Of a DNA stretch of 4,772 bases, positions 1 to 4,222 are shown in pieces. Source of the DNA: a virus (Duplodnaviria; Heunggongvirae; Uroviricota; Caudoviricetes); IMG/VR virus record IMGVR_UViG_2645727810_000002. One strand, 5' to 3'. The notes beneath the pieces are model-generated. The model was not told where the DNA came from and made no database searches. It saw only the letters and a list, made by a program, of their open reading frames with translations. The translations under genes were made by a program, and so were the position numbers. The first letter of the stretch is position 1. Every line of letters begins with the position of its first letter.

Positions 1-80
1 TTTCCATATTCGAGAGATTTTGCCAACGCCGCGCACGGTTCTATCTTGTTGCCATTAATTTGGCATTTTGACTCACTCAC
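1..80 (-). CDS. Hypothetical protein, N-terminal fragment only (gene runs off the left edge of the window)
   Basis: GTG at 80..78 overlaps the stop of the upstream ORF (GTGA); SD-like GGAGG at 91..87, 6 nt upstream; frame stays open to position 1 (N-term [26 protein letters not shown]). Not in the supplied ORF track because it is truncated. No family recognised. Confidence 0.35.
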
Positions 81-244
81 TGGTTGCCTCCTTTGCGCCA
101 CATCGCATTCAGATATTTGTTTTGATTCACTGACGGAGAAGAATTTCTCTTAAGCAATTCCTCTCTCGATGGCATTGGCTTTACGCGTTGGCGAATAATC
201 ATTTCTGCCGGAAGAATGCCGGGATTGTATGCAAGCCCTCTCAT
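77..244 (-). CDS. Hypothetical small protein (55 aa)
   Basis: ATG at 244..242 preceded by SD-like AGAGGAA with ~8-nt spacing, 16 nt after the stop of the 104-aa ORF; stop TGA at 79..77. Hand translation [55 protein letters not shown]. Absent from the ORF track (short). No homology recognised. Confidence 0.35.
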
Positions 245-260
245 GGTAAATTCCTCTTTG

Positions 261-575
261 TTAATTTATTTGTATGCCTGCTCTTTCTTCATCGAGTTTT
301 TTTAGCTTGTATCGCATAGCTCTTACTGAATAAATTGAGCGGCAGGTTGCAATTGCTATTTCTTCTGCGGAGAACTTACCGAAAAGTGATACTTCGGCTC
401 TTGTCCAGCGTCTTCCACGAAGTCGGCTAACAATGTCAGCGCCAATCCTTGTTGCTTTCGCCATTACTGCTTTTTCAGTCCTTTCCAGTTTTTCTGCGAT
501 AACTTCAACTGGCATTGTCGCCGCTACCTCGCGCAAGAAATCGACTTCCCATTTCTCCCATGGAGTCTTTTTCAT
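261..575 (-). CDS. Hypothetical phage protein with two tandem HTH-like modules (putative DNA-binding regulator)
   Basis: ORF-track 104-aa ORF with ATG start 11 nt after the stop of the upstream gene. Residues ~5-52 and ~55-102 align as an internal repeat (W...E.IA....R....V.A pattern). Family not recognised. Confidence 0.6.
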
Positions 576-586
576 AGGCGATACCG

Positions 587-1069
587 TTATTTGATAAGAA
601 GTGAAGGTTTCCCAACTTTGAGTTGAGCACCGGGGATATTTATTCCTGCTTTTAGTTGGTGTTTGATTGCCAGTTTGTCGGCTTTAATTGTCGTTTCAAA
701 CTCAACGTATTCAGGAGGAAGGGCGCTTGAGTCGATTATTTCTACAATTTCTGACGGTTTGCGGATTGTTACCTGGTGAATACCTGCTCGAATCTTTTTC
801 TTGCCAACCATTTCAAGCGATGCCGCTATATACGCCATAATGCTGTCAATCTTATTTTGAATTACTGCGGCTCGCTCATTCAGCGACCTTGCCTCTTCCT
901 TGAGGCGTTCAGCATAACCAGATTCATTTTTAATAATGGCAAGAAGTTGCTCTATTTTATCGGCAAATTCTCCTTCCATGCCTTCTATTGTGTCAGCAAT
1001 CATCTCTGGTTCTAAATCTGAATCCATCAATTTTGCGTATTCATTGGCAATTTCATACAGTTTGCTCAC
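587..1069 (-). CDS. Gp157-family-like coiled-coil phage protein (recombination-associated; possible host-nuclease inhibitor)
   Basis: ORF-track 587..1075 uses a TTG at 1075 that abuts the SD GGAGG (1080..1076); GTG at 1069..1067 has correct 6-nt spacing, so start set to 1069. The 5' end overlaps the recT 3' end by 17 nt. Helical, charged N-terminal half and beta-rich C-terminal half, ~160 aa, adjacent to recT, as typical for Siphovirus Gp157 (PF05565) or Mu Gam-like proteins. Family call is from memory. Confidence 0.6.
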   Translation of the reverse strand: MSKLYEIANEYAKLMDSDLEPEMIADTIEGMEGEFADKIEQLLAIIKNESGYAERLKEEARSLNERAAVIQNKIDSIMAYIAASLEMVGKKKIRAGIHQVTIRKPSEIVEIIDSSALPPEYVEFETTIKADKLAIKHQLKAGINIPGAQLKVGKPSLLIK

Positions 1070-1964
1070 TGGCAACCTCCAGTTTCGCTTTGCATTCTAT
1101 GTAAATGGCTTGTACGTTCTGCTGCAATTTCATTCCAGATGTCAGGCGATATGCTTCTGCAAAATATCGCTTCAAATCATCCATGTTTTCTGCATGAGCC
1201 ATTTCATCGCAAAGAAGTTGTGCTTTATCCATTATTTCCTGCTGGCGTTTCCGTTCATCTTCGCGGATATCTTCCTCTGATTTGTGCGGCATAACTGGTT
1301 CAGTCCACACACCTTCTTCTTCGTTTAGTACGTGAATAGCACTATCAAGACGTGATGCCTTAGGCCAATACTTGCTTGCACGCTTTACGACCGTCTTTCG
1401 CGCCATCTCATTCCAGTGATTTACCCATGGTCCTTTATCGCTGAATGCTGCCTTGCTTGTTTTCCTTACAGCCTCAATTTCAGCCAGACTCATCTCTTCC
1501 GTTAGATAATCACCTGCTGGCGTCTTAACTGTGCAGTAAACACCAACAATATCACCACGATCACCGAAGGCGTTGTATTTATGGGTTGGTGCTTTATCAA
1601 GCCCGTTTGACTCATAGGTATCGTTAGCTTGAACAAGTTTTGCCTGACCCCATGAGATAACACCAGACTCCATTGCAATATGGAGCAATCCCATATAACT
1701 GATATCAAGGCACACCATGCCGTCGCGCGGAACCAGATAAGCCAGTTTGCTAGCCGGGTTTAAGGTGATACCGATCGCCGCAACATTGATGATGGCGTTC
1801 TGTGCGCTGGTTGGATTTGCCAGTGCTGTTTTAGCCAGGTAATCATTTTTCTGGAAATACTGAATTGCAAACTGGCTTTCCTTAGCCCATGTCACCGTCT
1901 GTTCAGTCAATGCTCCGCAGAATAACTGCTCTTGCTGTTTAACGAATTCAACGATATTGCTCAT
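1053..1964 (-). CDS. recT: RecT-family single-strand annealing protein (phage recombinase)
   Basis: 303-aa ORF. Segment GPWVNHWNEMARKTVVKRASKYWPK closely matches the conserved RecT motif (E. coli Rac RecT ...GPWVTHWEEMAKKTAIRRLFKYLP...). SD GGAG ~7 nt upstream of ATG 1964; start overlaps the upstream stop (ATGA). Confidence 0.9.
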   Translation of the reverse strand: MSNIVEFVKQQEQLFCGALTEQTVTWAKESQFAIQYFQKNDYLAKTALANPTSAQNAIINVAAIGITLNPASKLAYLVPRDGMVCLDISYMGLLHIAMESGVISWGQAKLVQANDTYESNGLDKAPTHKYNAFGDRGDIVGVYCTVKTPAGDYLTEEMSLAEIEAVRKTSKAAFSDKGPWVNHWNEMARKTVVKRASKYWPKASRLDSAIHVLNEEEGVWTEPVMPHKSEEDIREDERKRQQEIMDKAQLLCDEMAHAENMDDLKRYFAEAYRLTSGMKLQQNVQAIYIECKAKLEVASEQTV

Positions 1965-2272
1965 GCTGCTTCTCCATAAACGTGTCTGCGTTTGAATATT
2001 GCGAAGGCATATTCAGCCTTAACTCTTTCGGTTATTGCATCCCAGAACCATTCAGCGGCTTTTTCCTGATAGTTACAGTCATAATCTTCCAGCCAGTCGA
2101 TAGCGTCCTTAGTGTGTTCATCTGGTTTATATGAGCGAAGCATTTCGCTTATTGGGTCGCAACGTTTGCAGAGGCGATCAACTTCACTGTTGATTCGTTC
2201 GTAATCTTCATCAGTAAAACTTGCGATTATTTGCGATATTTCACGCTCATCTTTCAGAGTCAGAATCATCAT
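1961..2272 (-). CDS. Hypothetical small acidic protein (103 aa) translationally coupled to recT
   Basis: ATG-ATG at 2272..2267 with SD AGGAG (2281..2277), 4 nt before the first ATG; stop overlaps the recT start. About 24 D/E versus about 15 K/R; contains a CKRC motif plus one more Cys. No family recognised. Confidence 0.65.
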   Translation of the reverse strand: MMILTLKDEREISQIIASFTDEDYERINSEVDRLCKRCDPISEMLRSYKPDEHTKDAIDWLEDYDCNYQEKAAEWFWDAITERVKAEYAFAIFKRRHVYGEAA

Positions 2273-2357
2273 CTTTCTCCTGTTCTTTGTGCTGATTGAG
2301 CATTTCTTTCATCTGAAGAATGAATTCTTCGTCTGACCAGTTATCTGTAAAACTCAT
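2247..2357 (-). CDS. Possible small ORF (36 aa) overlapping the cIII stop and the start of the 103-aa gene
   Basis: ATG at 2357..2355 overlaps the cIII-like stop (ATGA); weak SD-like AAGG ~6 nt upstream; hand translation MSFTDNWSDEEFILQMKEMLNQHKEQEKDDDSDSER; stop at 2249..2247. It overlaps the next gene by 26 nt in another frame, so may be spurious. Confidence 0.2.
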   Translation of the reverse strand: MSFTDNWSDEEFILQMKEMLNQHKEQEKDDDSDSER

Positions 2358-2524
2358 GGACGGCCTTGTTGTTTCAAAATATCCCAAAGCTTTTCGAGCA
2401 AACTTTTCATTCTTGGTTGTTTAAAGTCTGCTCCGGTTAAAATATTTTTTCGTGAATGCTGTACCGATAAAATCGGGTTGAAAGGGCGAACCGATGCCGC
2501 CCCTGCAATAGCGAACTGTTGCAT
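2354..2524 (-). CDS. cIII: CIII-like protein (putative FtsH/HflB protease inhibitor stabilising CII)
   Basis: ORF-track 2354..2629 has an implausible N-terminal extension. The internal ATG at 2524..2522 has SD AAGGAG with 6-nt spacing, giving 56 aa MQQFAIAGAASVRPFNPILSVQHSRKNILTGADFKQPRMKSLLEKLWDILKQQGRP. The MQ.AIAG start, the SLLE-containing segment and the size resemble lambda CIII as I recall it. Position in the leftward operon matches lambda cIII. Confidence 0.55.
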   Translation of the reverse strand: MQQFAIAGAASVRPFNPILSVQHSRKNILTGADFKQPRMKSLLEKLWDILKQQGRP

Positions 2525-2595
2525 AGGATGCTCCTTCTGTTTGATTGCATAACGAAAACGCCTCGAGTGAAGCGTTATTGGTATGCATATAAAAA

Positions 2596-2615
2596 GGCCC
2601 TCACACTGGAGGGCA
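2596..2615 (-). terminator. Candidate rho-independent terminator inside the leftward operon (tL1-like position)
   Basis: On the minus strand: GCCCTC-CAGTGT-GAGGGC (6-bp GC-rich stem, 6-nt loop) followed by CTTTTTATAT. Sits in the 220-bp gap between the 51-aa ORF and the cIII-like gene. Confidence 0.45.
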
Positions 2616-2676
2616 AAGAAGATTTCCAATAATCAGAACAAGTCGGCTCCTGTTTAGTTACGAGCGACATTGCTCC

Positions 2677-2704
2677 GTGTATTCACTCGTTGGAATGAAT
2701 ACAC
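2677..2704. repeat. Perfect 9-bp inverted repeat with 10-nt spacer (GTGTATTCA-N10-TGAATACAC)
   Basis: Read directly from the sequence; intergenic, upstream of the terminator hairpin in the direction of leftward transcription. No flanking T-tract, so not a canonical terminator; a protein-binding site or RNA stem-loop is possible. Confidence 0.5.
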
Positions 2705-2743
2705 AGTGCTTATTCGTCATGCATTTCAGGTATTTCTTCGTAT

Positions 2744-2899
2744 TCAACACCCCACATGTTTGTTACCCAGGATAGTTTTTTCGTACCGTTGACAAGATTC
2801 AGACCACATAAACTGACTTCCATGCGGGCGAGTTTCGATATCTGTTATCTCTCCCGGCCGAACAAAACTGGTATTCGACTTCGTTATTTTTACTTTCAT
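2744..2899 (-). CDS. Hypothetical small protein (51 aa), translationally coupled to the upstream 83-aa gene
   Basis: ATG at 2899..2897 overlaps the upstream stop (TAATG); stop TGA at 2746..2744. Hand translation MKVKITKSNTSFVRPGEITDIETRPHGSQFMWSESCQRYEKTILGNKHVGC. Not in the ORF track (short). An antisense plus-strand ORF (2756..2959) covers the same DNA and is judged the shadow. Confidence 0.35.
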   Translation of the reverse strand: MKVKITKSNTSFVRPGEITDIETRPHGSQFMWSESCQRYEKTILGNKHVGC

Positions 2900-3150
2900 T
2901 ACTCATCCCCAAGAGCTTTGCTGATTGCTGACTGTGCTTTCGATACTTCATCAGGATAATGGTCATTCCAGCTTTGCTTGTATGCCTTGTTTAGCATCGC
3001 TTGCAGAGCTTCAAGCAAATCAGGAGCTGCCTCCATCAATCTCAAATCACCACGATGTATGGTTGTATCGTCAAACGTGACATAAACACCATCATCGTTG
3101 AATCCAGTGCCAACAACACTCCACGGCCTTTTCATTCTTTCTACGGTCAT
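2899..3150 (-). CDS. Hypothetical protein (83 aa), first gene of the leftward early operon (occupies the position of lambda N but is not N-like)
   Basis: ORF-track 2899..3156 begins at a GTG that is part of the SD (GAGG 3159..3156); ATG at 3150..3148 has 5-nt spacing. Protein MTVERMKRPWSVVGTGFNDDGVYVTFDD... is net acidic with no arginine-rich motif. No family recognised. Confidence 0.6.
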   Translation of the reverse strand: MTVERMKRPWSVVGTGFNDDGVYVTFDDTTIHRGDLRLMEAAPDLLEALQAMLNKAYKQSWNDHYPDEVSKAQSAISKALGDE

Positions 3151-3322
3151 ATTCACCTCTGTTGTTTATGCCAAAAATATCTTTTTCTATATCAAAAAGC
3201 TGCTTTGCTTTTTGTGACTAAAAGCAAAAAAGCCTTCTCGCTAATGAGCAGCATTGCCGTTCATCCTGAACCCGCCGCGCTCCCGACGCATGGTTTAATG
3301 TCGCGCCGTTCGACATGGCTTA

Positions 3323-3351
3323 ACTATATTCAAAGCTATTATTGCTGTAAA
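3323..3351 (-). promoter_or_regulatory. Candidate pL-like early-left promoter
   Basis: Minus strand: -35 TTTACA (3351..3346), 17-nt spacer, -10 TATAGT (3328..3323); predicted start near 3316, giving a ~165-nt leader before the ATG at 3150. Overlaps operator-like motifs. Confidence 0.45.
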
Positions 3352-3443: not shown

Positions 3444-3476
3444 GGCAATAAAAAACCCGCAAAAAGCGGGTTTGTT
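3444..3476 (-). terminator. Rho-independent terminator immediately downstream of cI (hairpin is bidirectional, strongest for the minus-strand transcript)
   Basis: Stem AACCCGC / GCGGGTT with AAAAA loop (3454-3472). On the minus strand the hairpin is followed by TTTTTTATT; on the plus strand by TTTGTTG. Lies ~15 nt after the cI stop. Confidence 0.75.
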
Positions 3477-3490
3477 GTGGTGTGATGAGG

Positions 3491-4222
3491 TTAGTAGTCA
3501 ACTACAGACCACCAGAAGATTCTTCCGATGATCTCGATATCGCTTAGATTCTTTTCTTCTTGTGGGTATTCCAGTGAGTTAAAGCTTCTAATGCTTACCT
3601 TGTCAGGCCCTGATCGAAAGAGAATCTTAATGCGTTTCCAACCGTTCTCGTTAATGGCGTAAATCTTTCCGTCAACTATTTTCTTATCGTTGGTGTTAAC
3701 AGCAACTGTTGTTCCATCAGGAATGTTTGGCTCCATGCTGTTGCCACGAGCCGGAAAACAAACAACCCCGCTTCCATCACTGTTCGCGCCAACTCTGCGA
3801 AGGGTTGATTTGGAGAAGCGCAACATAAAGCCGTTGTGATCTTCATCAATCACCCGACCATCCCCGCATGCAAACTCAATATCTTTAAGGTAAGGAACTT
3901 CAACTTCATCACCTCTTAAAGGCGTTCCTCCATCCCATGGGTCCAAATATCCCCACGTGCTTTCATGAGGAATAGAAGATTTTGGATTATAAGGTTCAAC
4001 TCCCTCATCACGCATTGGCCCAGTCCCATCGGAAAGCCATTCCGTACGAACTCCAAGCACTTTTGATATTTCAAAAAGTTTGCGCGTATTGCGTGTTTTT
4101 CCAGACGTAAGTTTCCAGACGCTTGGCTGAGACATGCCAACAGCATTGCCAAGAGAAGCCTGAGTAAACCCAGCCTGATCCATCGCGTATGTAAGCCTTT
4201 GAGAAAAAGTATCTAGTTTCAT
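3491..4222 (-). CDS. cI: CI-like phage repressor (N-terminal HTH DNA-binding domain plus C-terminal LexA/S24-type autopeptidase domain)
   Basis: 243-aa ORF. HTH-like segment QASLGNAVGMSQPSVWKL; S24 signature G-N-S-M (putative nucleophile Ser162) and W-K-R-I-K ~35 residues later (putative general base Lys196), matching the LexA/CI/UmuD Ser-Lys dyad spacing. Divergent from a cro-like gene across an operator-rich intergenic region. Confidence 0.9.
   Translation of the reverse strand: MKLDTFSQRLTYAMDQAGFTQASLGNAVGMSQPSVWKLTSGKTRNTRKLFEISKVLGVRTEWLSDGTGPMRDEGVEPYNPKSSIPHESTWGYLDPWDGGTPLRGDEVEVPYLKDIEFACGDGRVIDEDHNGFMLRFSKSTLRRVGANSDGSGVVCFPARGNSMEPNIPDGTTVAVNTNDKKIVDGKIYAINENGWKRIKILFRSGPDKVSIRSFNSLEYPQEEKNLSDIEIIGRIFWWSVVDY

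Follow-up and report, generated by a model that had tools for sequence, protein, structure and literature searches.

Small genes and stop/start overlaps in the probable put-type early-left operon of a mosaic lambdoid Escherichia coli prophage

We analysed a 4,772-nucleotide (nt) stretch of DNA (the window) from the IMG/VR virus record IMGVR_UViG_2645727810_000002, assigned to the Caudoviricetes, with attention to three short open reading frames (ORFs) of its leftward gene cluster: a 51-amino-acid (aa) frame, a 36-aa frame termed orf36, and a 55-aa frame. The minus strand carries, in order, a candidate pL promoter, the antiterminator RNA putL, orf83, orf62, a structured spacer with terminators, cIII, orf36, orf103, and the genes for RecT, Gp157, orf104 and a DUF2737 protein (Table 1), and the right part of the window holds cI, then cro and the start of the cII-region genes. 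Taken jointly with the ORF identities, the minus strand of 1-3351 is very probably the put-type early-left (pL) operon of a mosaic lambdoid E. coli prophage. A megablast search of the window gave matches in 383 phage records and in 2460 of the 5426 complete E. coli genomes. The matches were piecewise, as expected because lambdoid prophages are mosaic, and the annotation of the matched records was of the HK022, HK97 and P22 types. The prophage is a mosaic of the HK022/HK97/P22 type.

The first-pass annotation of this DNA had presented the three short frames as additional genes of the operon. Two of them, orf36 and the 55-aa DUF2737 gene, are intact and under purifying selection, whereas the 51-aa frame comes from a 62-aa gene, of which it is a truncated allele. 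The frames are not unknown: they match catalogued families (phrog_17766/phrog_2123 for orf36, Pfam DUF2737 for the 55-aa ORF and phrog_10407 for the 51-aa frame), and the exact sequences of all three are already in public protein collections.

The junctions between genes were re-derived by script on the reverse strand, and all junction and ORF coordinates listed earlier, including those of the three short frames, proved correct. The orf83/orf62 junction is TAATG (2897-2901), a one-base overlap that the annotation of EC187792, which includes the 62-aa gene, also carries. The cIII/orf36 and orf103/RecT junctions are ATGA (2354-2357 and 1961-1964), and the junction between the DUF2737 gene and the next gene is GTGA (77-80). 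Gp157 starts with a GTG at 1069, 6 nt behind a GGAGG, and overlaps RecT, which stops at 1053, by 17 nt. Gp157 and orf104 are separated by 11 nt (576-586), and orf36 and orf103 overlap by 26 nt (2247-2272) in different frames, an overlap absent from the earlier list. These boundaries match the coding sequence (CDS) annotation of two relatives, the RefSeq isolate A357 and phage mEpX1. Overlaps were counted at six of nine junctions in the window and at 22 of 63 same-strand junctions in the annotated mEpX1 genome (14 of 4 nt, five of 1 nt and three other). The overlap density of the window lies within the genome-wide habit of such phages and is normal operon style. Shine-Dalgarno sequences had been ascribed to the three short frames, and a purine-rich stretch does lie 4-7 nt upstream of each, that of orf36 being weak (AAGG). 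Every junction of the proposed chain was reproduced, but the chain breaks between the orf83/orf62 pair and cIII, where 185 nt of structured non-coding sequence (2525-2709) intervene. The features of the operon are ordinary and already catalogued, and represent the standard compact layout of lambdoid early operons.

Table 1 Features of the window, in order of decreasing position along the leftward cluster, followed by the repressor gene.
Feature	Position	Strand	Basis or remark
Candidate pL promoter	3323..3351	minus	TTTACA, 17-nt spacer, TATAGT; best promoter-like match in the window, 10/12
putL, HK022-type antiterminator RNA	3185..3322	minus	96.4% identity over 138 nt to HK022, HK75 and O276 (annotated putL)
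orf83, first operon gene, P22 orf78 type	2899..3150	minus	phrog_1273, E 8e-19
orf62, disrupted in the window	2710..2899	minus	phrog_10407; ATG overlaps the orf83 stop (TAATG)
51-aa ORF	2744..2899	minus	N-terminal 41 orf62 codons plus 10 out-of-frame codons
A6 homopolymer with +1 insertion	2776..2781	minus	Frameshifts orf62; T-run on the plus strand; A5 in the comparison copy
Conserved 12-bp (base-pair) hairpin	2677..2704	minus	Right after the native orf62 stop; within the fold of 2520-2715
Two intrinsic-terminator-like hairpins upstream of cIII	2557..2614 (2597-2614, 2557-2576)	minus	Terminator scan
cIII-type gene, 56 aa	2354..2524	minus	ATG at 2524 behind GAAGGAG; phrog_550 'CIII', E 1e-22
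orf36, small conserved gene	2247..2357	minus	phrog_17766, E 2e-14; phrog_2123, E 1e-10
orf103	1961..2272	minus	phrog_3486, E 1e-57; ATGA-coupled layout with RecT
RecT single-strand annealing protein	1053..1964	minus	Pfam RecT, E 1e-31; phrog_148, E 2e-90
Siphovirus Gp157 / Mu Gam-like, GTG start	587..1069	minus	Pfam Sipho_Gp157, E 5e-36; phrog_253, E 7e-53
orf104	261..575	minus	phrog_11492/phrog_323 ('D5-like regulator' label)
DUF2737 protein, 55 aa, intact, HK97 gp38 type	77..244	minus	Pfam PF10930, E 3e-30; phrog_1117, E 1e-35
Start of next gene	1..80	minus	GTG at 80, AAGGAGG upstream; GTG overlaps the DUF2737 stop (GTGA)
LexA-like cI repressor	3491-4222	minus	Peptidase_S24 and helix-turn-helix

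orf36 is a genuine small gene, as its substitution pattern and its conservation across genera indicate. The family comprises 126 protein clusters from Escherichia, Salmonella, Citrobacter, Yokenella, Enterobacter and Pseudocitrobacter. Its N-terminal motif, MS[FI][TA]D.W[ST][DE][DE].F[IV]R.M... (phrog_17766/phrog_2123), is kept in all six genera, and replacements within the N-terminal 30 residues are conservative. The exact peptide and its close variants occur in 42, 747 and at least 1000 contigs of public collections, and CDSs of this type are annotated in Kapi1, the PV340543 mEpX1 record, 118970_sal4, PhiR12_5 and HK97. The RefSeq record that we examined (isolate A357, locus L001 3696-3781) omits orf36, the only one of the three small ORFs omitted there.

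We surveyed 80 IMG/VR loci that share orf103. The orf36 frame was intact in 75 of them, and the ATGA overlap with the upstream stop was kept in 77; of these, 42 had kil upstream, 32 had cIII and 3 had some other gene. The ORF always opens MSFTDNWSDEEFI..., and its tail is set by the downstream module, giving lengths of 35, 36, 44, 52, 56, 60 or 83 aa; the phrog matches of the window copy are likewise N-terminal only (phrog_17766 positions 1-32 of 60 and phrog_2123 positions 1-21 of 52). Between a divergent lineage and the common haplotype 26 of the first 84 nt differ (7/3/16 by codon position), and the ratio of nonsynonymous to synonymous differences (pN/pS) was 0.22 in frame versus 0.83 and 6.1 in the two alternative frames. 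These ratios are pairwise values against divergent lineages; the sum over all haplotypes against the window is dominated by a few shared differences. The synonymous-substitution and conservation analysis, which the first-pass annotation had named as a check, came out in favour of orf36 as a gene.

AlphaFold with the family alignment gave a single helix at residues 9-31 (mean predicted local distance difference test, pLDDT, 89 over residues 11-20) and then an acidic tail, so that orf36 is predicted to be a small protein of one amphipathic helix and an acidic tail. At 2247-2272 the acidic tail of orf36 (DDDSDSE) and the N-terminus of orf103 (MMILTLK) are encoded by the same bases in different frames. 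Among the closest named proteins are HK97 gp42.1, Sf6 gene 30 and Sf101 gp29 (phrog_2123, labelled 'recombinase'), which share nearly the same first 21 residues (MSFTDNWSDEEFIRQMKE...) and the ATGA form of start, and which also stand just before recombination genes. They differ in following kil, in their length of 52-83 aa and in an unrelated tail, whereas orf36 of the window comes directly after cIII and ends after 36 aa inside orf103. A literature search on the orf36 peptide, HK97 gp42.1 and DUF2737 returned nothing relevant. orf36 joins the cIII/kil module to the recombinase module that follows, whichever this is.

In an alignment with three relatives, the 51-aa frame owes its form to an extra A in a homopolymer of orf62, A6 in the window and A5 in the HCP17S3 copy, which is otherwise 99.8% identical. 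The insertion shifts the orf62 frame, and the 51-aa frame is its truncated product. Without the extra base orf62 has 62 codons, is closed by a TAA at 2710-2712 and has the C-terminal sequence ...LSWVTNMWGVEYEEIPEMHDE; in the window this C-terminus persists out of frame as the tail of a 37-aa ORF at 2710-2823. The repaired protein matches phrog_10407 end to end (1-62, E 6e-43), whereas the match of the 51-aa product is limited to positions 1-42 of 62. The pN/pS of orf62 was 0.37 in frame versus 1.0-1.2 off frame, and homologues at 55-65% identity hold a length of 58-62 aa. Intact 62-aa copies are present in HCP17S3, EC187792 and IMG/VR loci. The intact form was counted in 335 contigs and the exact 51-aa sequence in 8; among the loci fetched, 18 carried intact forms, and A6 was present in 2 distinct IMG/VR contigs. 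The 51-aa frame represents a recently inactivated, frameshifted allele of the 62-aa gene, of which it retains the N-terminal two thirds. An AlphaFold model of the 62-aa protein built without an alignment had a pLDDT of 53 and was unusable. In HCP17S3 the RefSeq annotation, made with the Prokaryotic Genome Annotation Pipeline (PGAP), does not include the phrog_10407 gene, although its 62-aa frame is intact there (locus L006 3071-3259).

The 55-aa ORF belongs to DUF2737 with a score of 104.2 bits against a gathering cutoff of 25, the match covering residues 1-51 of the 53-position model. Its exact sequence occurs in 64 contigs, where public records name it 'DUF2737 family protein', and the gene is annotated in relatives. 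HK97 gp38 and mEpX1 gp31 resemble it in being full-length DUF2737 proteins placed after the recombination module and overlapping the following gene by the same 4 nt. The difference is confined to the last ~20 residues and results from a mosaic boundary near 75-96. In E2348/69, which is 99.6% identical, a RefSeq 89-aa hypothetical protein starts at the position of the next gene with the same 4-nt overlap.

Other readings of the short frames were weighed against these assignments. For the 51-aa frame, the insertion sits in a homopolymer, a setting typical of sequencing error and of polymerase slippage; the frame downstream of A6 is still perfect, so that the change is either recent or artefactual, and the ORF keeps the N-terminal 41 residues of orf62. 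The frame might accordingly be functional as it stands, A6 might be an error of assembly, or slippage at A6 might still give the 62-aa protein. We consider this unlikely. The 51-aa product comes from the 8 contigs counted above and A6 from two distinct ones, which points to a reproducible allele, and the conserved C-terminal WGVEYEE(I/L)PEMHDE is lost from the 51-aa ORF. A run of six A's is, moreover, short for efficient transcriptional slippage. For orf36, one may ask whether the conserved entity is the DNA itself, a recombination joint together with the ribosome-binding site and start of orf103, and not a gene at all. The first 54 nt of orf36 (2304-2357) are ~98% identical in HK97, Sf6, HK022, HK75 and Shiga toxin (Stx) phages while the flanks differ, the tails of the ORF change with the downstream module, and PGAP did not call orf36 in the record examined. 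In the last 27 nt of orf36 only 2 sites vary among 25 haplotypes, compared with 32 in the preceding 84 nt, and this could be explained by orf103 alone. In 5 of the 80 loci orf36 is lost (2 by nonsense mutation, 1 by frameshift and 2 without a start), so that it is dispensable in prophages. The substitutions tell against the DNA-level reading, in that 16 of the 26 changes concentrate at third codon positions and a low pN/pS is seen solely in the orf36 frame; the frame is open in 75 of the 80 loci and in all tail variants, and replacements are conservative across the six genera. A purely DNA-level explanation is regarded as very improbable.

Scarcely more probable is the proposal of the first-pass annotation that the small ORFs encode peptides akin to Kil or DicB, which would block host functions such as cell division. 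They are of the right size and lie in the pL operon, where lambda and P22 keep kil; lambda, HK97 and P22 Kil and the DicB of Qin are likewise small early-operon prophage proteins, and in related prophages kil adjoins orf36 immediately upstream. A Pfam-A scan of the 36-, 51/62- and 55-aa ORFs, however, returned DUF2737 alone and no match to Kil (PF06301) or DicB, and four Kil types (Sf101/HK97, lambda, P22 and 933W) had no tblastn match in the window at E<=10. No sequence similarity connects the window ORFs to any of these proteins. An NCBIfam scan was uninformative, as it matched neither the small ORFs nor a bona fide Kil used as control. Relatives have kil as a gene of its own ahead of the orf36 start; in the window kil is absent and cIII is joined directly to orf36. 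Lambda kil begins within the 3' end of cIII or just behind it; orf36 does start on the cIII stop here, but the same ORF follows a separate kil in 42 of the 80 relatives, so that its position is that of the gene after kil. The 51-aa frame, for its part, is the truncated allele described above. A Kil- or DicB-like identity thus has no support from sequence.

Position and motif together suggest, tentatively, that the likeliest function of orf36 would be that of an accessory of the recombination module, like P22 Arf. Arf aids recombination and is non-essential (PMC12315714). The P22 order is c3-kil-arf-erf, with an arf of 47 aa, compared with cIII-orf36-orf103-recT in the window and kil, an orf36-type gene and erf (or bet) in relatives; orf36 lies, like arf, between kil/c3 and the gene of an annealing protein. 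Both proteins are small and acidic (47 aa versus 35-36 aa), and in both an acidic helix comes after the N-terminal motif (F/W)SDEEFI. Arf begins MQHEFSDEEFIALIS..., and its (W/F)SDEEFI is as far from the N terminus as that of orf36. An hhalign comparison of the orf36 family with Arf gave P = 0.001 over 20-22 aligned columns centred on this motif, one divergent orf36 variant matched phrog_2445 (Arf) at E 0.007, and one cluster of the orf36 family bears the source name 'accessory recombination function protein'.

The orf36 family could accordingly be a remote, unrecognised counterpart of Arf, a one-helix acidic cofactor at the boundary of the recombination module; we regard this as possible but doubtful. 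Several results tell against it. The hhalign probability was 19-21%. A Pfam scan of the window orf36 at E<=0.01 gave no Arf (PF17585) match, nor did 15 members of the orf36 family even at E<=1. An exhaustive profile search of 1.84 billion representatives found 28 proteins, all of the orf36 family and none Arf. Unlike P22 Arf, the Erf cofactor (PF17585, phrog_2445), orf36 precedes orf103 and RecT and not Erf, starts on the upstream stop codon (ATGA), has a module-dependent tail and gives no significant hidden Markov model (HMM) match to the Arf family. Homology to Arf is not demonstrable, and orf36 has no established membership in that family. If the Arf-like reading is nonetheless true, orf36 would be tied by its ATGA to the upstream gene and would work with whichever annealing protein follows (RecT, Erf or Bet).

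The put-type assignment of the operon rests on its upstream end. The candidate pL lies directly upstream of putL, and the aligned stretch is annotated as a promoter or -10 signal in the HK75, HK022 (X16093) and O276 records. RNA of the putL type, which adjoins pL directly, makes RNA polymerase resistant to termination, by a mechanism that has been described (PMC9378689). No N-like ORF was found between pL and the first gene, and the window is without an N gene. The arrangement is that of HK022, where a nearly identical putL also stands right after pL without an N gene. It differs from HK022 in the first gene 3' of putL, which in the window is an ORF of the P22 orf78 type and not nun.

The spacer upstream of cIII is strongly structured (z = -6.2 for the fold of 2520-2715). 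For the first of its two terminator-like hairpins, the mEpX1 record gives a rho-independent terminator and the HK97 record a putative one. A 78-nt non-coding element at 2640-2717 recurs with 100% identity in 933W, H-19B and many Stx phages, and in 933W stands between L0079 and ssb/ea10. It sets in directly behind the native orf62 stop and forms the 12-bp hairpin. We presume that it may belong to a terminator or processing region like tL2 of lambda. In a scan of the whole window against Rfam at E<=1 there were three sub-threshold matches, all on the terminator at the 3' end of cI, and nothing in 1-3150; putL went unreported and the conserved hairpin matched no family.

From this layout we infer the following course of expression. 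Transcription would start at pL, and the nascent putL RNA of the HK022 type would modify RNA polymerase and so enable it to pass the terminators at 2557-2614. A single polycistronic mRNA may then span orf83, orf62, cIII, orf36, orf103, recT, gp157, orf104, the DUF2737 gene and beyond. The stop/start overlaps (TAATG, ATGA, GTGA, the 17-nt and the 26-nt overlap) would let terminating ribosomes reinitiate on the next gene, so that genes with weak ribosome-binding sites, orf36 foremost, would be translated in step with their upstream neighbour. The earlier claim that the genes form a leftward early operon of a phage and are translationally coupled is in this sense supported, the coupling being read from the layout. 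It counts against this account that both the operon structure and the coupling are drawn from layout and from the biology of lambda, P22 and HK022.

orf83 shares with P22 orf78 the C-terminal stretch AAP(D/E)LLEAL...ISKALG(D/K)E, and the same 252-nt CDS is also annotated by RefSeq in relatives. The orf83/orf62 pair resembles the orf78-orf87 pair of P22, in which an orf78-type first gene near the N/put region overlaps a second gene of ~60 aa by one base of stop and start. The pairs differ in that orf87 is unrelated to phrog_10407 and that the second gene of the window is frameshifted.

The cIII gene is identified by its match to the phrog_550 HMM and by its position upstream of the kil/rec genes; its exact protein occurs in at least 1000 contigs. 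RefSeq gives the same 171-nt CDS as hypothetical, and NCBIfam had no match to it. In mEpX1 the cIII CDS (window 2354-2629; locus L002 3759-4034) is 276 nt long, has a TTG start and passes through the terminator annotated in the same record. This 91-aa TTG-start ORF, also present in the mechanical ORF list, is probably too long, and the 171-nt version starting at the ATG at 2524, as in RefSeq, is far more plausible.

orf103 is annotated in RefSeq, mEpX1, Kapi1, SEN22 and Gally, and a sequence search of the PDB with it found no meaningful relative. RefSeq annotates the same 483-nt Gp157 CDS in relatives. Phage Gally (locus L109 1366-1680) labels the 104-aa protein of orf104 'Anti-RecBCD protein 1, similar to P22 Abc1'. 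An identity of orf103 or orf104 with P22 Abc1, as this label would have it, was rejected: BLASTP against P22 Abc1 gave no alignment, and orf104 belongs to phrog_11492/phrog_323.

At the 3' end of cI, a CA-rich stretch CAUCACACCACAACAAACCCGC at 3447-3505 on the minus strand leads into a strong terminator hairpin. The weak sub-threshold Rfam matches fell here (Yfr1, Trp_leader and isrK, E 0.014-0.5). An AgvB-like anti-small-RNA (anti-sRNA) with an anti-GcvB-like seed was considered for this position and dropped, as the published anti-sRNAs are located at the PR' moron site and not beside cI (PMC4104026). The stretch is probably just the cI terminator.

The sets of aligning relatives change sharply at ~75-96, ~2265-2304, ~2710 and ~3180. 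These mosaic boundaries sit at or just inside gene ends, namely the 3' end of the DUF2737 gene, the interior of orf36, the stop of orf62 and the start of orf83. orf36 marks a precise mosaic joint at which the ATGA start is retained whatever gene stands upstream, and it may merit trial as an Arf-like accessory, for example in RecT-based recombineering. The small genes of the operon decay independently in different prophages: the DUF2737 gene is frameshifted in isolate A357, the closest complete-genome relative (locus L001 1503-1671), and intact in the window. As the 51-aa frame of the window shows, a small ORF may have a plausible ribosome-binding site and still be the remnant of a frameshift and not a native gene. 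Both orf36 and the intact 62-aa gene, each under clear purifying selection, are missing from the RefSeq (PGAP) records examined, and counts of small proteins in prophages are therefore underestimates.

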